Shown here: piece by piece, positions 8,034 to 37,804 of the stretch
Layout: each line of letters begins with the position of its first letter
Numbering within the stretch: position 1 is the stretch's first letter
NCBI GenBank assembly: GCA_964640295.1
Contig: CAZXFX010000008.1
Span: 3,153-67,152, forward strand
Length of the DNA stretch: 64,000 nt
Source of the DNA: an uncultured Dehalococcoidia bacterium
Lineage (GTDB): Bacteria > Chloroflexota > Dehalococcoidia > Lucifugimonadales > UBA1123
Direction: 5' to 3'
Program-made: the position numbers and the translations under genes
Notes under the pieces: generated by a model
The model's database searches: none
What the model saw: the letters and a program-made list of their open reading frames with translations, nothing else
Told to the model about the DNA's origin: nothing

Positions 8034-9290
8034 CTACCGAGCGGCGCCCGCTTTCGCGCGCTCAACCGAACTCCTTGCCTGAGTCAGAGACAGCGCGCCA
8101 ATAGCGAACATGACAGCCGCCACCGCGAACGCGAGCGCGTAGCTGTCCGTGTAGTCATAGGAATAGCCCGCTAGGAGCGGCCCCAATCCAAAGGAAACCA
8201 TCGAAGCCATATTGATGATGCCCATTATGCTCCCGAAATTTCGCACCCCGAAAGCGTCTTGCACCGTTAACTGAAACAGCGCCCCGAAAGCGCCGCTGAA
8301 ATAGCCATACACCGGGACTGATACCCACAAGATGAGCGGCGACCCCGCCCATATCATCATAGTAACGAATATCGCCTGACCGAACAGGTTCATCATCAAT
8401 GTGTATCGCGCGGAAATCCTCTCAGCGATAATCCCCATGAAGAACTTGCCGACTATGCCCATGATGGCGAATACGCTGAGCGCGACTGTGGCCACCCTGA
8501 GCGACACCCCTTCGTCAACCAGGTGGGTGATGATTTGCGGCAGCACCGTCGAGTACGTGAAAGTCCCCATCACGATGGACAGCGCGATGGCGTAGAAAGT
8601 CTTGCTTCTGAGCGCCTCGCCCACAGAGACGCCGCTCACCAGCGGAGACACGCCTCCGCCGCCCGCCGCTTCAGACAACTGGTCGCCCAACTCCGACGCT
8701 TTCGGAAAATCTCTCACCGCGACGAGCGCGTATATCACCATCAGCGCGCTCATGACGCCGAGAGCGACATACGCTCCCTGCCAAGACGCGAGCGTGAGAA
8801 GCCCTCCGAGAATCGGCGGCATTAAGAGCCCGCCAAAGTTATTCCCCATGGCGGTAATGCCCATCGCCCTGCCCCGCGTCCTGTGAAACCAGAGCCCGAC
8901 CAGCTTTCCGGCCGGCAGCATGGACGCGCCCGTATAGCCGCTGTACTGGAGAAGACTCAGCGCGTACCAGTGCCAGAGCTCCGACATAAACGGGCGCAAC
9001 AAGTATCCGACGGCGGTCAGCGCGAGCGAGACTGCCATCACGTGCTTCGCGCCGTACTTGTCCATGATTCGGCCAAGGATTGGCGCGATGAGGCTGCCAA
9101 CCGCCGTGAATGACAGAGACAGGTTTATCTGCGTGCGAGTCCAGCCAAACGTCTCTTCCAGCGGCTCGATGAATATCCCAAAGCCGTATTGGCCGGCTCC
9201 GGTGCCAATCGCCGCGGCGAAGAACGGTACCGAAACTACCCACCACCCTCTGTATATAGAGGGCATTTCTATTCTGCGAACAAGGTTCAA
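8034..9290 (-). CDS. MFS transporter (oxalate/formate antiporter-like)
   Basis: 418 aa with 12 hydrophobic segments. The N-terminal GAGQYGFGIFIEPLEETFGWTRTQI is typical of the OFA subfamily. Confidence 0.75.
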   Translation of the reverse strand: MNLVRRIEMPSIYRGWWVVSVPFFAAAIGTGAGQYGFGIFIEPLEETFGWTRTQINLSLSFTAVGSLIAPILGRIMDKYGAKHVMAVSLALTAVGYLLRPFMSELWHWYALSLLQYSGYTGASMLPAGKLVGLWFHRTRGRAMGITAMGNNFGGLLMPPILGGLLTLASWQGAYVALGVMSALMVIYALVAVRDFPKASELGDQLSEAAGGGGVSPLVSGVSVGEALRSKTFYAIALSIVMGTFTYSTVLPQIITHLVDEGVSLRVATVALSVFAIMGIVGKFFMGIIAERISARYTLMMNLFGQAIFVTMMIWAGSPLILWVSVPVYGYFSGAFGALFQLTVQDAFGVRNFGSIMGIINMASMVSFGLGPLLAGYSYDYTDSYALAFAVAAVMFAIGALSLTQARSSVERAKAGAAR

Positions 9291-9328
9291 GCTAATGGGC
9301 GCGGACTCTCATTATGATGGATGGAGAC

Positions 9329-9431
9329 GTATCAATTCAGTCGGCGCTCCACATTGCGCGAAAATCCCTTTCCTCTTGATGGGGGAAGATCAGGATGGGG
9401 GTAATCCAACCCATCCGCCAAACTGATACAG
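9329..9431 (+). repeat. Copy A of a dispersed roughly 100-bp intergenic element with short terminal inverted repeats
   Basis: GTATCAA...GCGCTCCACATTGCGCGAAAATCCCTTTCCTCTTGATGGGGGAAGATCAGGATGGGGGTAATCCAACCCATCCGCCAAACTGATACAG. It is near-identical in most positions to the copies at 28339-28443 and 38991-39092. Confidence 0.65.
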
Positions 9432-9580
9432 GCTCACAAGTGAACAGTATATACAATCCTCCGCCCAATTCGTATAGAATTGCGATTGGAAACCTTGGCG
9501 TATCGAGAGACGCGAACGCCTTCCACTTAGAAAGAGCGTCTATATTTCGCGGCTTTGCCCGACGAGACAGGGAGGAACCG

Positions 9581-11380
9581 ATGCCAAATTTCACCACGCG
9601 ACCGGTAGTAATGAGCGCCAGGGGCGTAGTCACATCCGGACACTATCTCGTCTCCTCAGTCGGATTGCAGATGCTGGCGCGCGGCGGAAACGCGATAGAC
9701 GCCGCAGCCGCTATGGGCATCTGCGAAACTCTTCTCGAACCGCAGTCCTGCGGCATCGGCGGCGAAGTCCCGACACTCATCTACTCCGCGAAAGAGCGCA
9801 AGACCTACGCGATTTCCGGCATGGGCTGGTCGCCAAAGGCGTTCACCATTGACTGGTGCCGCGAGAACGGCATAGACCTCATTCCCGGCGACGGCTATCT
9901 GCCCGCCTGCGTTCCGGCCGTCGTCGGAACATGGACGACCGCGCTCGCCCGATTCGGCACGATGAGCTTCGCCGAGATAGTCCAGCCCACTATCGCCATG
10001 GCCGAGAACGGCTTCCCCGTTTACGAACGCCTCGCCCAAACCCTCGCGGACAGCTACGCCAAGTTCACCGAACTCTACCCCACGACCGGCGAGATATACT
10101 ACGCCAATGGCGGCGTCCCCGAAATAGGCGAACTCGTCCGAAACCCGGACTTCGGCGCGATGCTGCGCTCGCTTTGCGACGCCGAGAAGCGGACGAGCGG
10201 CGGGGGGCGCGTCGCCGGAATCGAAGCCGCCAGAGACGAATACTACAAGGGAGGCGTCGCCGAGAAGATCGTCCAGTTCATCAGCGACAACCCTGTCGAG
10301 GACGCCAGCGGGCTCGCCCACACTGGCCTGCTGACGCTCGATGACCTCGCCGAGTGGAACGCGGTCGTCGAGCCGCCCGTCTCCATCGAATACAAGGGAA
10401 TGGACGTCCACAAATGCTCTTCATGGACGCAGGGCCCCACCTTCTTGCAGCATCTCGCGGTGCTGGGCGCGATGAACGCGCCCGCGCTCGGACACAACAC
10501 CGCCGACTATCTGCACGGCTGGATAGAATCATCCAAGCTCGCCTTCGCAGACCGTGAAGCGTACTACGGCGACCCCGATTTCGACGATGTTCCCCTGGAC
10601 GAACTTCTCTCCTACCGGTACGCCGAGACGCGGGCGTCCCAGATAGGCGAACGCGCCTCGTTCGAACTGCGACCCGGAGACCTGGGCGGCGGGGCGCCGG
10701 CCTACACATCCGTCAGCGTGGCGGAGGACAACCGCGCCGCGCTCGGAGTGGAGGCGCGAGCGATACGCGACCTGGGCCTGGGACACGCGCACATCGGCGA
10801 CACCACGCACCTCGACGCCATGGACGCGGAAGGCAACATGGTCGCCGCGACGCCGAGCGGCGGCTGGCTCGGCACTTCGCCCGTGATAAAGGGGCTCGGA
10901 TTCCCGCTCGGCACTCGCGGCCAGATGTTCTACCTGAACCCCGACCGTCCCAACGCGCTCCAGCCGCGCAAGCGTCCCCGCGCCACGCTGACTCCCACCA
11001 TCGTCACCCGCGACGGCTCTCCCTTCATGGCGTTCGGCACGCCGGGCGGCGACTCGCAGGAGCAGTGGACCATCCAGTTCTTCATGAATCACGTAGATTT
11101 CGGAATGAACCTGCAGGAGGCGCTGGACGCGCCCACCGTGCATTCCACGCACTTCCCGTCGTCGTTCTACCCGCGCGCCGCGTTCCCCGCTCGCGTCGTC
11201 GCCGAATCGCGCATTTCGGCGGACGCAATCGAGGAGCTAAAACGGCGCGGCCATGAAGTCGAGTTGACCGACGCCTGGGCAAACGGCAAAGTAATGGGCA
11301 TCCGCTGGCACGAGGAAAAAGGAGTAATAGCCGGCGCCGCTTCCGCCAAGAACAACATAGGCTACGCAATGGCACTGTAG
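9581..11380 (+). CDS. ggt: Gamma-glutamyltransferase family protein
   Basis: Autoprocessing/nucleophile region GDTTHLDAMDAEGNMVAATPSGG, followed by TPGGDSQEQW. I chose the start at MPNFTT after a GGGAGGA RBS. The longer ORF from 9395 would run through repeat copy A. Confidence 0.85.
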   Translation: MPNFTTRPVVMSARGVVTSGHYLVSSVGLQMLARGGNAIDAAAAMGICETLLEPQSCGIGGEVPTLIYSAKERKTYAISGMGWSPKAFTIDWCRENGIDLIPGDGYLPACVPAVVGTWTTALARFGTMSFAEIVQPTIAMAENGFPVYERLAQTLADSYAKFTELYPTTGEIYYANGGVPEIGELVRNPDFGAMLRSLCDAEKRTSGGGRVAGIEAARDEYYKGGVAEKIVQFISDNPVEDASGLAHTGLLTLDDLAEWNAVVEPPVSIEYKGMDVHKCSSWTQGPTFLQHLAVLGAMNAPALGHNTADYLHGWIESSKLAFADREAYYGDPDFDDVPLDELLSYRYAETRASQIGERASFELRPGDLGGGAPAYTSVSVAEDNRAALGVEARAIRDLGLGHAHIGDTTHLDAMDAEGNMVAATPSGGWLGTSPVIKGLGFPLGTRGQMFYLNPDRPNALQPRKRPRATLTPTIVTRDGSPFMAFGTPGGDSQEQWTIQFFMNHVDFGMNLQEALDAPTVHSTHFPSSFYPRAAFPARVVAESRISADAIEELKRRGHEVELTDAWANGKVMGIRWHEEKGVIAGAASAKNNIGYAMAL

Positions 11381-11442
11381 CGGGACGTCCGCTTGAGAGT
11401 CAGATTGGGACTTCCTTCAACTCGCCGGGGCGTATCTTATCG

Positions 11443-11544
11443 AGCGCCCCGCGAATAGCGGATATTCGCAGCAGTATATATCAGGTGGTCGCCAAGATGC
11501 CGTCTCAGAGGCGCAGGCGTTCCTTGATCGAACAGTATCTTCAC
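11443..11544 (-). pseudogene. Truncated DUF5615-like (PIN-like, Mut7-C type) toxin remnant downstream of DUF433
   Basis: A GTG overlaps the DUF433 stop as GTGA. The translation is VKILFDQGTPAPLRRHLGDHLIYTAANIRYSRGAR-stop, 33 codons. Only the N-terminal approx 20 residues resemble the family; full-length members are about 110 aa. Confidence 0.4.
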
Positions 11545-11768
11545 AGTCCTGCCGGCGCTTTGAGCGCTTTCGCCTCATGTTCCAGAACAGCCCTCACCTT
11601 CCACTCATCCACACTTGGGAACCATTCCAAGAACTGTTCCACTGTAGCGCCGCTCCCCAGGTTTTCAAACAGGGCCGCCACCGGCACTCTCGTTCCTGTG
11701 AATGTCCAGACGCCACCGAGCTTCCCCGGCCGCCGCTCCACTGCCAAGTACGTATGCCAGTCCGTCAT
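11541..11768 (-). CDS. DUF433 domain protein (antitoxin-like HTH partner of DUF5615)
   Basis: PGKLGGVWTFTGTRVPVAALFENLGSGATVEQFLEWFP matches the DUF433 core pattern G-P-x-GTR-V. Confidence 0.7.
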   Translation of the reverse strand: MTDWHTYLAVERRPGKLGGVWTFTGTRVPVAALFENLGSGATVEQFLEWFPSVDEWKVRAVLEHEAKALKAPAGL

Positions 11769-11829
11769 ATCATCGCCTCAATTCTAATGCTATTTGACGT
11801 TTGTGGCCCGCCAGTGAAGAGAAACGAAG

Positions 11830-13056
11830 TCACGCCGCCCGACGGGTACTCAAAGCCTCGTCGCGCAATGCCCTTATTCTATCAGCCAAATCGCCGATGC
11901 GGGCAAGAACCTCATCCAGCGTCCCCGACAAATCCAGGGCGGCGACCTCCAGTCGCTTGCCTGAATGCCTAACGTGATAGATTCTCTCATCGGACTCTCC
12001 CTTTGCGTAGATAAGCAGACCGCCCGGCAGATCGAGCGCGGTGGCATAGGCAAGCAACTGGTAGAGATCGGCGTTGGGAACGTGGCTATGAGGTATGCGC
12101 TTGTACTTCGCGTCACCTACAAATCTGCAAACACGACCCTCCCACCATGATAAGTCTGGCCTGAGTTTAATCTGACGTGTCTCGTCGAGATAGATGGAGT
12201 GAGGCAGATTCTTGTCGGAGCGTAGCGCGCGACCGGAAACGCCCAGCGCTTCCCTGAGCGCCTGGGTTACGAACTCTTGGAAGACGTTGTTCATGTTCAT
12301 CAGGAATCCCGACGCCCGAATCCTGCCCCTGCCCGACTCGAACGCGCTGTGCCTGAGTATGAGGCGCGACAGACCTACTACGCCTCGATAATGTTCGTTC
12401 AGGCGGTTGAATGTCACATTCGGGGCGCCTGTCCGAGAAAATTCCATCAGCGATACGTTCTCAAGCGAGCCGGCGACCCACCCCAGACCCTTGCGCGCAT
12501 CCTGAGAGCGCAGGCGCATTCCGGCAAGTCGAATCGCCGCCGCCTTCACGAGTCGGTTCGCTAGAATATCCTCGGTGAATTCGTCATACTCCACCTCTAT
12601 CGGCAGCGGGACGCCAAACCTGCGCCGTATCTGCTCATCGAACCTGATTCGCCCGCGAATGCCATACAGCGCTTCCTGCTCAGATCGGTATCCGTGCAGA
12701 AGCCCGCGAGAGAACGCCCTTCGCGCCGCGGTCACAAGAGCCAGCGCCAAAACATCCGGCAGAGCGTATTCAGGAGGATAGTCGAACATTTCGCGCTGCG
12801 GCTTGAACTTGCTCGTTGCGTAGCAGGCAAGCGATAGCAATTGAGGAACGCCTATCTTGGGCTCTATGAACACAGACAAGTCGCCAATCTCGATTGCGCC
12901 GACTGTCGCCCCCGGCGTCAAGCGATACAGGTTCAACTCGCCCTCGCAGGGTTCGACTCCAACAGACGAAATCGTCGCCCGAAGCGCGTCGCGCTCTGCA
13001 ACAGAGAGGCGGTACTCTCTGGAATCGTATTCTTTCAGGTCAATCGGGCGCATCAT
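11830..13056 (-). CDS. mcrC: McrBC restriction system, McrC endonuclease subunit
   Basis: 408 aa. PD-(D/E)xK-type region LRPDLSWWEGRVCRFVGDAKYKR. The start ATGATG overlaps the mcrB stop, and it lies directly downstream of an McrB-type AAA+ gene. Confidence 0.85.
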   Translation of the reverse strand: MMRPIDLKEYDSREYRLSVAERDALRATISSVGVEPCEGELNLYRLTPGATVGAIEIGDLSVFIEPKIGVPQLLSLACYATSKFKPQREMFDYPPEYALPDVLALALVTAARRAFSRGLLHGYRSEQEALYGIRGRIRFDEQIRRRFGVPLPIEVEYDEFTEDILANRLVKAAAIRLAGMRLRSQDARKGLGWVAGSLENVSLMEFSRTGAPNVTFNRLNEHYRGVVGLSRLILRHSAFESGRGRIRASGFLMNMNNVFQEFVTQALREALGVSGRALRSDKNLPHSIYLDETRQIKLRPDLSWWEGRVCRFVGDAKYKRIPHSHVPNADLYQLLAYATALDLPGGLLIYAKGESDERIYHVRHSGKRLEVAALDLSGTLDEVLARIGDLADRIRALRDEALSTRRAA

Positions 13057-31418: not shown

Positions 31419-32138
31419 TTAGAAGCCCAAATTTCGCTGCTTCATGCTGACAAAGCTCTGTTGTCCTATGACGATATGGTCGAGCAGCTCGATGTCCATC
31501 ATTTCCGCGCTCTGATTCAGACGCCTCGTCACCAGGATGTCCTCCGGACTTGGCGTCGGGTCGCCCGACGGATGATTGTGCGCCACGATGATATACGGAC
31601 AGTTCTCCCTGACGGCGGGCCTGAGTATCTCCGCCACCCTGATGGAGGCTGAGTTGACCGTCCCCTGATATACGTCTCGCATCGCCACCACGCGGTTCTT
31701 CGTGTTCAGCAGCAGGACGCGCAGTTTCTCCTGGGTTAGCTGAGACATTTCGACCCCTACCAGATTGTGAACGTCTTCAGGCGACCCTATCGAAGGTCTA
31801 TTCTGCGGATTCATGCTGGCCGCCCGCTTGCCGAGTTCGACTGCCGCCACTACCTGACAAGCCTTGGCCTCGCTGATGCCGCGGAGGTCGCACATATCGC
31901 CAATAGTGGCGTCCGCCAGTCCTGATATCCCACCCAACTTGGAGAGTAGTTTATCAGACAAACTCAACACGTTTTCGCCTTTCACCCCCGTGCGGAGTAA
32001 AATAGCTATCAGGTCAGAGTTGGAGAGCGATCCGGCCCCCAGCCCTACGAGCCTCTCCCGAGGCCTCATGTCGGCTGGCATATCGCGGATCATCGGGTTG
32101 TAGGGCTTCTCGATTTGTTCGGGATATTCGTTCATCAT
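31419..32138 (-). CDS. radC: RadC-family JAB/MPN domain protein (UPF0758)
   Basis: IRDMPADMRPRERL at the N-terminus, an HhH region, and the JAMM motif HNHPSGDPTPSPEDI. Confidence 0.85.
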   Translation of the reverse strand: MMNEYPEQIEKPYNPMIRDMPADMRPRERLVGLGAGSLSNSDLIAILLRTGVKGENVLSLSDKLLSKLGGISGLADATIGDMCDLRGISEAKACQVVAAVELGKRAASMNPQNRPSIGSPEDVHNLVGVEMSQLTQEKLRVLLLNTKNRVVAMRDVYQGTVNSASIRVAEILRPAVRENCPYIIVAHNHPSGDPTPSPEDILVTRRLNQSAEMMDIELLDHIVIGQQSFVSMKQRNLGF

Positions 32139-32219
32139 GTATCCGCTTCGGAGATTATACGCGGAGCATTGTAGCACATTGACAAAACAATGTCAGAACC
32201 GAGCCGCGCCTGCATCGCC

Positions 32220-33836
32220 TCACAGCGCGCTCTTCAACTCCTCCACTTGCTCGACTTCCTCCAATTCCCCGATGATCCCCAGCACCTCGGATATATCAGT
32301 CAGCAACGCTTTAGAGCGTTGAGTAGCCGTACTTTCCTCAAAGGTGGGGTGTATCGTTCGGTTGCGATACGTCTGTATCCGTCCCAACTTGTCCGACAAA
32401 TGATAAGCGTTTTCTCCGAAACACTTTGCATAGCTGGCTACTACCAATCTAAAGTTGCCGAAATCTAACTCGGACGCGTAATTGTCGTATCGGTGTTTAT
32501 CCGCGCCTACCCTATCAAGAGCGGATCCAATGTCATCTAATCCGTAGTTGAACGCAATTCCGTTCGAAAGGTTTTTTATGATGAACTTGCGGACAGGGTC
32601 TCTCATTATGTTCAAACCGTGTCCGACCAAGGAAAGTTGGCCCGGATTTTTAGTTGTATCGCCAATGAGCGAATGTAACCCGTTTTGCCCATTCCGAGCG
32701 AGACGCGCGCTCTGGCGATAGCGCTGAAGTTCGTCGTTCAGCTTTTGGATGGTATCATCCCTCTTGCTCAGCGTATCTGCCAATGAGTCTCGTTCATCTT
32801 TGAGATTGCGAATCTCGTCTCGCTCCTTCTCCAGTCCATCCGCCTGTGAAGCCCTCTCAAGCTCTTCCTCCAGCCTCGCCACGTCTCTGAGCGCCGTGTC
32901 GAGCCGATTCTCGGCGTCTATTCTCTCACTCTTCTCCGCATCCAGCGCGCGTTCGAGCCTGTCCCTTTCGATTTCCGCTCTGCGCGTCCGTCTCTGAAGC
33001 CTTTTGAGTTCAGTGGATTCGTCCACTTGAGCGTGGCTTCGTAGTTGTTCGTTCCTGAACCGAATGCATGCGATATTGACTGCTACGAACTCGCGGTCGA
33101 ACGATTCCGGCGATGAATTCTCATCCAGGTCGCTAACAATCTCCGATATAACCGATACCCCCGATCCGCCCGGCCTATAGAATCCGCCCTTCCCGCGTCC
33201 AGCGAAATGTGGCCTCGCGCCCGGCCAGACGATTCTAGCGGCCCCGTTATAGGTTTCGAATCGGGATCCCCATTCAGTTCGATAACGACCCCGAGGAGGC
33301 GCCTCCACAACTTGCGCCATTCCCAGCAACTGTCCTGACAGCCGGTCTATGTCTCCATAAGGGAGACGCCCACTCGGATCCTTGCTTACCATCAGGACGG
33401 GCAGCTTGCGCTCAGGTGAAAACAGGAGTCGCGCCAACTCATTTTTCGCGGGGGCGGCGGCTCCGATTCTCTGCGGCCCGACTCGACATTCGTATCGTTC
33501 GGCAAGTTCTCGCATGAACTTCGGAGCGGAGATCGAAGAGACGGCTCCATCCTCCAGCGCAACGCCAGAGAACACCTCGGCCCGAAGTTCGTCTTCGTTC
33601 GCGTACAGCCGTACAGCAAGACGCCAGAGTTTATCGTTGTAGTACCGCTCCGCGTTTATATCGGCGTAGGCATAATTATCCGCCGTCTCGGATTCTACCG
33701 CAGTCGGAGAGTCGTCATCTTTATTGATCTTCTCCAAGAGATAGTCTTTGACCTCCAGCAATAATCTTGCGCGATCCGATGGACCGCTTGCGGATGCGCC
33801 AATTCGACTGATAGAGAATTCAGCGCGATATGCCAT
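32220..33836 (-). CDS. Large hypothetical protein: unknown N-terminal domain, roughly 110-aa coiled coil, C-terminal HEPN-like (Swt1-type) domain
   Basis: Rx4H motif in LGRIQTYRNRTIHPT within an all-helical roughly 140-aa C-terminal domain. The central heptad-rich region is Glu/Arg-rich (RRAEIERDRLERALDAEKSERIDAENRLDTALRDVARLEEELE...). A GAGGGA RBS precedes the ATG at 33836. Confidence 0.55.
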   Translation of the reverse strand: MAYRAEFSISRIGASASGPSDRARLLLEVKDYLLEKINKDDDSPTAVESETADNYAYADINAERYYNDKLWRLAVRLYANEDELRAEVFSGVALEDGAVSSISAPKFMRELAERYECRVGPQRIGAAAPAKNELARLLFSPERKLPVLMVSKDPSGRLPYGDIDRLSGQLLGMAQVVEAPPRGRYRTEWGSRFETYNGAARIVWPGARPHFAGRGKGGFYRPGGSGVSVISEIVSDLDENSSPESFDREFVAVNIACIRFRNEQLRSHAQVDESTELKRLQRRTRRAEIERDRLERALDAEKSERIDAENRLDTALRDVARLEEELERASQADGLEKERDEIRNLKDERDSLADTLSKRDDTIQKLNDELQRYRQSARLARNGQNGLHSLIGDTTKNPGQLSLVGHGLNIMRDPVRKFIIKNLSNGIAFNYGLDDIGSALDRVGADKHRYDNYASELDFGNFRLVVASYAKCFGENAYHLSDKLGRIQTYRNRTIHPTFEESTATQRSKALLTDISEVLGIIGELEEVEQVEELKSAL

Positions 33837-33866
33837 GTCCTGTCCCTCCATTCACTGGTTTCACTC

Positions 33867-35258
33867 TCAGTCTCGAATGTCGCCTATTCTTCTTATCTCG
33901 GTATCCGGATAGAACACTCGCCACGCGAACCAGAAGTGGCTGGCGTGCGCTACCGGAGACAGTCTCGCTCCCGCCAAAGGGCCGCTGACCGCTTCCCCGA
34001 ATATGTTCCAAGAGGAGGAGGTCTGGTCGTCGAGGATAGACGCTTCATCGAACCTGAACGTCAGCTTGAGACCGTCAGCAACTGGATCAAATGCGGCGGC
34101 TGAACCCACCGCGAGATTTTCTGAACCGAATATGCCCAGGAATGGCGATAGGGTATCCGGAACGTAGAAGATGGCGATATCCGCGCCGCCTACCCTGTCG
34201 TTTATCACGGGGCGCGACTCAAAGAGCGCAAACGGATACGCAACATTGGAGTCGCCGATGTTCAGCCCCAAAACTCTTTCCATGGGCGGCAGCCTGTCAT
34301 CCAGTTCGCCGACGAACATGAAGGGGCGGTCGCCACTAGAGTCGTAACCTGCGTATGGAGGCCGACCGTAGTTGCGCGTGAATCCGGTGTCTCTGCTCAG
34401 GACGCTGCCGTCCGGAAAGGCCTCTTTGAAATCCTCCCACGAAACCAAAGACGCGGGAAGCGTATCGAGTTTTGCCCCCGTATATTCCCCGACAATAGCC
34501 TCGCCGGGTATTTGCTGCCACCACGATTCCGTCTGTCTGTCCCACATGATCATATCACTATGACGCAGATAGCCGGTGGTTCCAAAGTCGAGTACCGGCT
34601 CGCCGTCGCCGACGCGACGGTCGAACACTATGGCGGAGTTGCAGAGCGGACAATAGGTGACCGTGATCGGCGTTCCCGCAAGCTCGTCGTTGACTATCTC
34701 GTGCCAGATGAGTATCGCTAGCGGATAGGCGCGCGCCTCCTCTCCCAGCTCCACGCTCAATACAGGTTCGCGCGCCTCCATATATGAAGAAGCCTGAGCG
34801 ACAGTCTCGAACTTGGGCTGGTCAACGGGCGCGATGCCGTCCCTCGGAGGCCCGCCGCGTCTTATGTCGGAATATGGAACAGAGTATTGGGTGAAGTCGG
34901 TCTTCCATCCTATATAGCGAAATTCCATCTCTGCGTCTTCCCATGTAACCGTCAACTGAAGCGGGGACAGAGGGACTGGCGTGGATGTAGGCGCTGGAGT
35001 GGGGATGTCGGGGGGAACGTTCATAGGCGACGGCATGGCAGTCGGAGCGGGTATAGCTGAGGCGGTCGGAATCGCCGATATAGGCGGAGGGGATAGCTGA
35101 GGGCGCGGAGCCTGCCGTTCAATATCCATCTGTGAAAGATTCTCTCCGGTGTCGCAGGCTGAAACGGCGAATGGGATGATCAGAAAGAATAGAGAAAATA
35201 ACCCAATAGAGCGACTGAGGATAGTTTGAAAAGTTTTTGAGCGACCCATTTGTCTCAA
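33867..35258 (-). CDS. DUF3179 domain lipoprotein
   Basis: Signal peptide plus lipobox FAVSAC, and a Pro-rich linker. The DUF3179-type core includes PRDGIAPVDQPKF, YPLAILIWHEIVND, TYCPLCNS and FDRRV. Confidence 0.7.
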   Translation of the reverse strand: MRQMGRSKTFQTILSRSIGLFSLFFLIIPFAVSACDTGENLSQMDIERQAPRPQLSPPPISAIPTASAIPAPTAMPSPMNVPPDIPTPAPTSTPVPLSPLQLTVTWEDAEMEFRYIGWKTDFTQYSVPYSDIRRGGPPRDGIAPVDQPKFETVAQASSYMEAREPVLSVELGEEARAYPLAILIWHEIVNDELAGTPITVTYCPLCNSAIVFDRRVGDGEPVLDFGTTGYLRHSDMIMWDRQTESWWQQIPGEAIVGEYTGAKLDTLPASLVSWEDFKEAFPDGSVLSRDTGFTRNYGRPPYAGYDSSGDRPFMFVGELDDRLPPMERVLGLNIGDSNVAYPFALFESRPVINDRVGGADIAIFYVPDTLSPFLGIFGSENLAVGSAAAFDPVADGLKLTFRFDEASILDDQTSSSWNIFGEAVSGPLAGARLSPVAHASHFWFAWRVFYPDTEIRRIGDIRD

Positions 35259-37416: not shown

Positions 37417-37804
37417 TTATCGTTCCATTATGTAAGTCTCAAGACCGTCCACTCGTTCAAAATTGTTGTCCAAGGTCAGTAGTGGCAACGAATGTTGAAG
37501 CGCCAGCGATGCGATAATCAGATCAGCGAATCCTAGCATACTGCCTCGTCTCATCAGTCCATAGTTTACTTCCGAAGCTATCAGCCACGTGTCTTTATCG
37601 GCATTTATAAAGGGCATCTCGGCAAGTCGGCTTGCCCAGAAGTCATAATCCGACTGAGATACGCACCCTTGCAGTATTTCAGTCAGAACTGGCCCAATCA
37701 TCTGTACATCGCCATCCGTCAGATTAAGAATCCAACATCCTGCCGCTTGGAGACGTCGGGTAATTGATATAGTTCATCCAGACTGATGTATCCGCGATAG
37801 CCAT
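37417..37804 (-). pseudogene. vapC: VapC (PIN domain) toxin gene, frameshifted
   Basis: The N-terminal piece is MAIADTSVWMNYINYPTSPSGRMLDS-stop. Another frame continues TRRLQAAGCWILNLTDGDVQMIGPVLTEILQG...FADLIIASLALQHSLPLLTLDNNF. The frame change lies near 37724-37760. Confidence 0.65.

Follow-up and report, generated by a model that had tools for sequence, protein, structure and literature searches.

A HEC-07-like N-terminal module and a predicted Swt1-like HEPN domain in a solitary gene of an uncultured Dehalococcoidia bacterium, a candidate abortive-infection RNase

The DNA analyzed here (the window) is a stretch of 64,000 nucleotides (nt) from an uncultured Dehalococcoidia bacterium (NCBI GenBank assembly GCA_964640295.1, contig CAZXFX010000008.1, positions 3,153 to 67,152 of the forward strand), and the gene under study, the target, lies on its minus strand between the gene of a DUF3179 lipoprotein and radC. 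The region contained a single long open reading frame (ORF), 32220..33851 (-), which measured 543 amino acids (aa) when counted from the first ATG. The sequence GGAGGG was found 7 nt upstream of the ATG at 33836, and in the alignment all homologues of the protein started with MAYRAEF; the ATG at 33836 is therefore the correct start, giving a product of 538 aa (P0001). The ATG at 33851 falls inside the Shine-Dalgarno site and also disagrees with the MAYRAEF starts, and was rejected. An earlier inspection of the letters alone (the sequence-only reading) had described a 538-aa gene with these same limits, and the gene was found to be intact. It was present as one copy in its own genome. The features of the gene and its immediate neighbors are listed in Table 1.

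Table 1. Coordinates of the target gene, its parts, and adjacent features in the window
Feature	Coordinates	Strand	Basis or remark
Whole gene, 538 aa + stop	32220..33836	-	HEC-07-like N-module, coiled coil, Swt1-like HEPN domain
Shine-Dalgarno sequence GGAGGG	33844..33849	-	7 nt upstream of ATG at 33836; read from sequence
N-terminal module, residues 1-262	33051..33836	-	AlphaFold model
Conserved N-module core, residues 101-208	33213..33536	-	stretch matching PADLOC HEC-07
Central charged helical hairpin (coiled coil), residues 263-391	32664..33050	-	AlphaFold model, composition
Predicted C-terminal Swt1-like HEPN domain, residues 392-538	32223..32663	-	hhalign
HGLNIMRDPVR, residues 406-416, conserved HEPN first-helix block	32589..32621	-	alignments
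R491-N-R-T-I-H496, R-x4-H HEPN catalytic motif, RNxxxH form	32349..32366	-	
radC (UPF0758_N + RadC JAB domain), downstream neighbor	31419..32138	-	first gene of conserved syntenic block
Promoter-like site CTGACA-17-TACAAT with upstream TG, in the gap from gene stop to radC	32168..32196	-	consensus match only
DUF3179 lipoprotein gene, upstream neighbor	33867..35258	-	PF11376, E=1.5e-100

When the whole protein was searched against Pfam, NCBIfam, PHROGs, and PDB sequences, only coiled-coil noise was returned, with matches of the SMC, JetC, LmuB, and tape-measure kind. The gene had been called an orphan on first inspection, which stands as far as Pfam, NCBIfam, and PDB sequences are concerned; but 24 close homologues were found, and the N-terminal module recurs in 360 clusters. 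The 3' third of the gene had also been described as AT-richer, and its GC content was indeed 0.48 vs 0.56 in the rest. The implied separate origin did not hold. The GC content at third codon positions (GC3) was flat along the gene (0.57 in the 3' third vs 0.58 to 0.61), and the GC dip was common to most orthologues, so the bias reflects amino acid composition, and a recently acquired module was ruled out. For the gene as a whole, GC3 was 0.58 vs about 0.70 for radC and ApbA.

A further result concerned the N-terminal part of the protein, in which nothing had been recognized from the letters alone. Residues 101 to 208 matched the PADLOC profile PDLC04161 (HEC-07) with an E value of 1.3e-9 over profile positions 140 to 258 of 553, and HEC-07 was the sole PADLOC match of the target outside coiled-coil matches. 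HEC-07, for "Hma-embedded candidate" 07, is a single-gene anti-phage protein validated in Escherichia coli (bioRxiv 10.1101/2024.01.29.577857). True HEC-07 genes were found within the target's own genus at three loci (L009, L011, and L013). The genus HEC-07 proteins matched the PADLOC model through to its C-terminal end (E=1e-26 to 4e-35), and one of them aligned with the target in BLASTP with 29% identity over 156 residues (E=1e-9). A profile search with the N-module alone recovered 360 representative clusters, mostly of HEC-07 type and 500 to 560 aa in length. Ten members of the wider clade of HEPN-tailed relatives were sampled, and nine of them matched the PADLOC HEC-07 model at E<=2e-5, six at E=1e-13 to 7e-20, with several matches reaching into the coiled-coil region of the profile. 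These matches identify residues 1 to 262 as homologous to the N-terminal module of HEC-07.

In the AlphaFold model, the N-module consisted of two alpha/beta subdomains, residues 1 to 95 (beta-alpha-beta4) and 96 to 262. The positions that were near-invariant across the superfamily were P105, C117, R143, P146, S151, G172, A174, V176, G198, R201, and P205, a set that is mainly structural and includes two arginines, one serine, and one cysteine. No known catalytic motif was seen among these positions, and the module therefore suits a binding or sensor role. A weak Foldseek signal (E about 0.1) to a Mog1/PsbP/DcrB/EagT6-like sheet was obtained for residues ~1 to 100. The AlphaFold models rest on shallow alignments of 11 to 17 sequences, which limits their quality. 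Separately, the subfamilies of 583 to 585 aa (P0002 to P0005 and P0012 to P0017) were seen to carry an insert of ~47 aa after helix 1 (A1 columns 40 to 100), and the insert looks as if the segment before it had been duplicated in tandem (EVRDYLLEKIQEGDSRADAESDVAEDLVYAN vs KVRDYLEKQIRGSESRTDIESDAADDCAYAK).

The C-terminal domain was modeled as all-helical, with a predicted local distance difference test (pLDDT) score of about 70. The motif LGRIQTYRNRTIHPT was present in the target, and the R-x4-H signature, reported in its RNxxxH form by the sequence-only reading, proved to be conserved. In the family alignment used for motif conservation, which comprised 17 homologues, R491, N492, R493, I495, H496, and P497 were invariant, as were H406, N409, M411, R412, D413, P414, and R416 of the first-helix block, and RNxxxH was retained by 22/22 representatives of the wider clade. 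For profile-profile comparison, the family C-domain alignment was set against Swt1 HEPN domains with hhalign, the comparison set being four domains from the genus that scored above the PF18731 gathering score (33 to 41 bits vs 27.5); one of the four proteins is fused to a DUF499 ATPase. The resulting probability was 98.2% (E=4.2e-14, 129 columns), and the register placed MRDPVRKFI on RDAMRPFI, LDFGNF on IDVGDF, and RNRTIHP on RNKAAHP. When the family profile was run against the whole genomes of the genus, C-domain matches were also obtained in unrelated proteins (E=8.7e-13 to 1.6e-4). Relatives of the target matched the Pfam family itself: the divergent family member P0023 aligned with positions 2 to 106 of 115 of PF18731 (HEPN_Swt1) at 17.9 bits (threshold, 27.5), and 8/10 C-domains of the wider clade matched it, one over threshold at 29.9 bits. 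The C-domain profile found nothing below E=0.3 among PDB sequences. Residues 392 to 538 are accordingly best identified, by alignment and profile, as a HEPN domain of the Swt1 clade in which RNxxxH is invariant, as the sequence-only reading had proposed. Because the target misses the curated Pfam cutoff, its filing as a Swt1-like HEPN rests on profile-profile and transitive evidence.

Between these two modules lies the region that had been noted as a charged heptad stretch, and this description was borne out. Residues 263 to 391 were 47% charged with zero proline, and the AlphaFold model folded them as a hairpin of two long helices (275 to 329 and 336 to 384). The coiled coil was the least conserved part of the protein and drew only SMC, JetC, and tape-measure style noise from the profile libraries. 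Taken together, the protein can be described with high confidence as having a three-part architecture, with a HEC-07-like head, a coiled coil, and a HEPN tail.

The C-termini of related proteins were classified with home-made hidden Markov models (HMMs) for the best 150 of the 360 N-module clusters. Among these, 92 to 97 were RelE-like, 46 to 47 were HEPN-like, and none were both. The HMM of the RelE-type C-domain matched none of the 46 to 47 HEPN-type proteins, the target included. In a maximum-likelihood tree of the N-module from 99 proteins, a HEPN clade of 39 rows, with a Shimodaira-Hasegawa-like approximate likelihood ratio test (SH-aLRT) support of 100, was nested inside the RelE-type HEC-07 proteins, which indicates an effector swap. 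All HEPN-type proteins in the tree but one (P0063) fell in this clade, and the minimum number of changes between RelE and HEPN effectors was 2. P0063 carried both an N-module that matched HEC-07 strongly (E=1.4e-24) and, at 81.5 bits, a canonical HEPN_Swt1 domain. The simplest reading of the tree is that the effector of a RelE-type ancestor was replaced by a Swt1 HEPN at the base of the clade and again in the lineage of P0063. The architecture, which the sequence-only reading could not assign, would thus be that of a HEPN-effector sister clade of HEC-07. No description of a HEC-07 head combined with a HEPN tail was found in the literature searched, in which HEC-07 itself was named by a single paper. 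In two further proteins (P0054 and P0060), the HEC-07 N-module was followed by a C-terminus matching PADLOC "CARF7--CARF_RelE" and not the usual HEC-07/NsnC-type tail; this CARF-RelE-type tail is a third effector flavor on the HEC-07 head.

Several other HEPN and HEC-07 proteins of the genus were recorded. In the target's own genome (L016, G000:C4:78238-78477), a 131-aa ORF contains a Swt1-like first-helix block and RNRAAHP with the middle of the domain missing, and resembles a copy of the 327- to 362-aa proteins of L010 and L012 that has decayed or suffered a deletion. The latter (L010 1462-2442 and L012 1360-2445, in G024 and G013) encode ~326-aa proteins that begin with a Swt1-like HEPN (37 bits); the ~170 aa after it are conserved and match nothing in Pfam, and the whole is another uncharacterized HEPN architecture in the genus. 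ORFs of ~1000 to 1160 aa at L015 (G028:C15) and L014 (G021:C9) combine an N-terminal Swt1-like HEPN with a DUF499 P-loop ATPase of the HmaC/BREX-related type, and G028 holds both a HEPN-DUF499 protein and a HEC-07-like HEPN protein. At L009 (640-3446, in G017), the RelE-type HEC-07 gene directly follows, with an overlap, a gene for a DUF262 + HNH protein, for which matches to Menshen NsnA (E=2.6e-24) and PD-T4-2_A were obtained. The pair may be a two-gene arrangement joining HEC-07 and a GmrSD/NsnA-like sensor nuclease.

The gene was detected in 4/30 genomes of the genus and in 0/31 other genomes sampled from the family and order, while radC was present in 29/30 genomes of the genus. Within the near subclade, defined by RadC identity and comprising 11 genomes, the gene was found in 4/11. 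In three related carrier genomes and a TARA contig, it lay between trpS/trp operon and a radC-cupin-cupin-ApbA-cupin-SodN block, and in different carriers it was accompanied by IS1 fragments, a 23S-IVP gene, an APH gene, or a further unknown gene. In G014, the trpS-radC gap measured about 365 bp and represents an empty site. The same interval held secreted proteins (one Excalibur-like), an ATP-binding cassette (ABC) substrate-binding protein, and an IS630-type element in G003, G020, G009, and G013. The trpS-radC interval is therefore an accessory-gene hotspot of the genus, not specifically a defense island. Identity between syntenic orthologues was 61 to 64% for the protein vs 78 to 94% for six neighboring proteins, and the divergence was spread over all domains. 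At an amino acid identity of about 62%, synonymous sites are saturated.

Ten genomic contexts were examined in all. Homologues were found among transposases (L023), in an island where HicAB lies among unannotated genes (L003), and between nadA and nadC (L024), the last with an MmeI-type restriction-modification gene 7 kb off and a Schlafen/AlbA_2 gene 5 kb off. At this last locus (8738-12541), the point of insertion of the HEPN-clade member P0036 is exactly the junction of nadA and nadC (QRPTase), two NAD-biosynthesis genes that are otherwise contiguous. No conserved neighbor was found across the ten contexts, and the gene was solitary throughout, in keeping with its earlier description as a stand-alone gene. 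Neither the protein nor the called neighbors at any locus examined contained an MNT domain, and no MNT or other antitoxin gene was adjacent in any context. A contig scan for further loci recovered only three already-known loci.

On the same strand, 30 bp separate the gene from the DUF3179 stop (33867) and 84 bp from radC, so that the short gap and the gene order given by the sequence-only reading were confirmed, with Pfam matches for both neighbors; RadC was identified by PF20582 and PF04002 (E=2.7e-40 for the latter). The significance that reading attached to radC did not survive. On the radC side, the window carries the same block as its relatives, and upstream a DUF3179 gene, an HtrA-like protease gene, and a NIPSNAP gene replace trpS. 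The gene was near radC in five related genomes or contigs. In two of the contexts (L001 and L022), an oppositely oriented APH gene, in one of them with another gene, lay between it and radC, and in five others (L002, L003, L020, L023, and L024) radC and DUF3179 were both absent nearby. The promoter-like site in the gap suggests that transcription of radC can proceed independently of the gene. A functional link between the two was rejected on the phyletic pattern, the insertions, and this promoter-like site. DUF3179 adjoined no homologue of the gene and is accessory cargo specific to the window; an operon partnership with it was rejected, since it was never adjacent to a homologue. Both neighbors are probably bystanders, and the radC adjacency is lineage-specific synteny. 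Elsewhere in the window, a 94-aa ORF at 37417-37701 (-) contained only the C-terminal half of a PIN domain (PF01850, positions 56 to 119 of 120, 34 bits); it sits in a low-GC patch (0.43 to 0.48) and is probably the remnant of a truncated VapC-type toxin.

The best explanation of these data is that the protein is a solitary, cytoplasmic, three-module RNase of immune type. We consider it somewhat probable that the gene acts in anti-phage defense as a solitary abortive-infection RNase, and the case for defense gains independent support from the finding that the N-terminal domain is the N-module of the experimentally validated HEC-07. HEPN RNases need dimerization, as their active site is a composite of two domains. 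In the proposed mechanism, the N-module, most likely both sensor and auto-inhibitor, would detect an infection cue, with conserved R143, S151, R201, and C117 forming a cluster within it. The coiled-coil stalk would then let two HEPN domains pair and form the composite active site. The enzyme would cleave host and/or phage RNA (tRNA, rRNA, or mRNA), upon which growth would stop and the infection would be aborted.

A number of observations weigh against this interpretation. On the structural side, Pfam gave no HEPN match for the target C-domain even at E<=10, Foldseek found no significant match in PDB for the C-domain model (pLDDT 70) or in PDB and BFVD for the full-length model (mean pLDDT 73), and no HEPN, AdoMetDC, or thioredoxin match was obtained with Foldseek on the target models. 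The activity of HEC-07 comes from a RelE-type member of a different phylum, expressed in E. coli, and the dimerization, the trigger, and the RNA target of the present protein are all predicted. On the genomic side, the window neighbors not yet mentioned are metabolic apart from the truncated PIN remnant, homologues at L002 and L020 lie amid purely metabolic genes, and tblastn searches of phage and plasmid collections returned no homologues. The cargo of the same hotspot in relatives consists mostly of secreted proteins, transporters, and an insertion sequence (IS) element, not defense genes; on this ground, a clear defense-island setting was rejected.

The main alternative, though unlikely, is that the gene is a self-contained selfish element of the toxin or addiction type, in which a HEPN toxin is inhibited in cis and the N-module serves only as internal antitoxin, and which would persist through intragenomic conflict or stress-induced growth arrest. 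HEPN domains are common as toxins of toxin-antitoxin systems, and the gene is solitary and patchy, is found beside transposases and HicAB in some contexts, and has no clear defense island around it in the window. Its N-module, however, is shared with a protein shown to confer phage resistance, no MNT or other antitoxin gene adjoined it in any context examined, and it is chromosomal and fixed in position in one lineage, with no plasmid or phage homologues. This alternative also overlaps in part with the abortive-infection interpretation, the boundary between toxin-antitoxin systems and abortive infection being blurred.

Much less probable is a protein whose HEPN domain lacks catalytic activity and functions in dimerization or in binding nucleotides or RNA, the whole acting as a regulator or scaffold. 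Some HEPN domains are indeed non-catalytic, AlphaFold confidence was below 50 around H496-T502, and no fold match was found; but the RNxxxH and RD..R blocks are invariant or nearly so in the family and the former persists across the wider clade, as would be expected for an active site, and the sister clades hold bona fide RelE/BECR RNase folds at the same architectural position. At the bottom of the range, marginally below the inert domain, we place a housekeeping or stress-related RNA-processing enzyme that works with radC and DUF3179, in the way that eukaryotic Swt1 or Las1 act in RNA surveillance. The close same-strand spacing to both neighbors and the recurrence near radC in five relatives would fit such a role. 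Against it, the gene is missing from 26/30 genus genomes in which radC is nearly universal, one close relative has an empty site, and an APH gene, once with another gene, has come between it and radC in two relatives. DUF3179 never adjoins a homologue, neither neighbor is nearby in five other contexts, radC has a promoter-like site of its own, and the gene's rate of divergence is two to three times that of its neighbors.

Returning to the abortive-infection RNase, a broader proposal may be made, which is plausible but which we hold more tentatively. In this proposal, the N-module would be a portable, self-contained infection sensor that has been coupled to at least three RNase effectors, namely, PB-BECR1/RelE-like, CARF-RelE-type, and Swt1-HEPN. 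The Swt1-HEPN effector would have been gained in two or more independent events, and the HEPN clade, which comprises at least 46 clusters at 50% identity, would constitute a single-gene anti-phage family that has not been described and that PADLOC lacks. The R143/S151/R201/C117 pocket would bind the trigger, possibly a phosphate-bearing small molecule or a nucleic acid end, and the coiled coil would turn binding into HEPN dimerization.

To our knowledge, few of the recently validated single-gene defenses are less well understood than HEC-07; we know of nothing on its trigger, and of no description of it except with a RelE tail. What is new here is the HEC-07 head on a predicted HEPN RNase in a sizeable sister clade, effector swapping itself being familiar in defense systems. 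The HEPN-tailed clade separates "sensor" from "effector" within the HEC-07 family and provides a natural chimera pair, one putative sensor with two RNase chemistries, with which the coupling between sensing and RNA cleavage can be dissected. It is also predicted that the current PADLOC HEC-07 models miss this whole branch. For the uncultured marine Dehalococcoidia, whose defense repertoire is poorly charted, an immune-type gene and the trpS-radC hotspot have been documented.

Compared with known systems, the target is closest to HEC-07 (PADLOC PDLC04158 to PDLC04161), with which it shares a homologous N-module, a length of about 530 to 560 aa, a central helical region, the single-gene organization, and a C-terminal effector of metal-independent RNase type, predicted in the case of the target. 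Seven of nine HEC candidates, HEC-07 included, reduced coliphage plaquing (bioRxiv 10.1101/2024.01.29.577857). Payne et al. (bioRxiv 10.1101/2024.01.29.577857) assigned HEC-07 three parts, an AdoMetDC-like domain, a thioredoxin-like domain, and, at the C terminus, a RelE RNase. The first two folds were not reproduced by Foldseek on the target model, and the RelE/BECR domain with its conserved histidine is missing from the target, which has the Swt1-like HEPN in its place. The target also lies outside any Hma system. Since it covers only about 21% of the profile, PADLOC would leave it uncalled, and because the RelE tail was tested for and found absent, it should not be filed as HEC-07.

With the Swt1-like HEPN family (PF18731), the target shares the RD..R..I first-helix block, the (I/L)D..(D/N)F block, and RNxxxHP, although it lies under the Pfam threshold itself. 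In the DUF499 ATPases of Hma type, the Swt1-like HEPN is N-terminal, whereas that of the target is C-terminal, preceded by a HEC-07-type module and a coiled coil, and is not accompanied by an ATPase. A further parallel is offered by Menshen NsnC, in which an inactive PIN domain is combined with a polymorphic BECR effector (PMC12065111). The HEC-07 tails of the genus also matched the BECR tail of NsnC, and the RelE-like tail of HEC-07 is the same domain type as its C-terminal PB-BECR1; the target resembles NsnC in the principle by which a conserved N-terminal module is paired with exchangeable RNase tails. Unlike Menshen, it had no NsnC match, and neither NsnA (DUF262) nor NsnB (ABC ATPase) was found among its window neighbors (DUF3179, RadC, cupins, ApbA, HtrA, and NIPSNAP). 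HEPN is not among the effector families described for Menshen (PMC12065111).

The target differs from toxin-antitoxin pairs of the HepT/MntA type in having neither an adjacent MNT gene nor a fused MNT domain. In abortive-infection HEPN proteins, a HEPN effector is fused to a non-catalytic presumptive sensor, and growth is arrested by RNA cleavage. The single-protein HEPN defenses (AbiD/AbiF, AbiJ, AbiU2, and AbiV; RloC/PrrC-type; HEC-08) have a different N-terminal module, and the target gave no match to their PADLOC or Pfam models. Like them, it is solitary and pairs an R-x4-6-H effector with a presumptive sensor, and it is predicted to share with them growth arrest through RNA cleavage.

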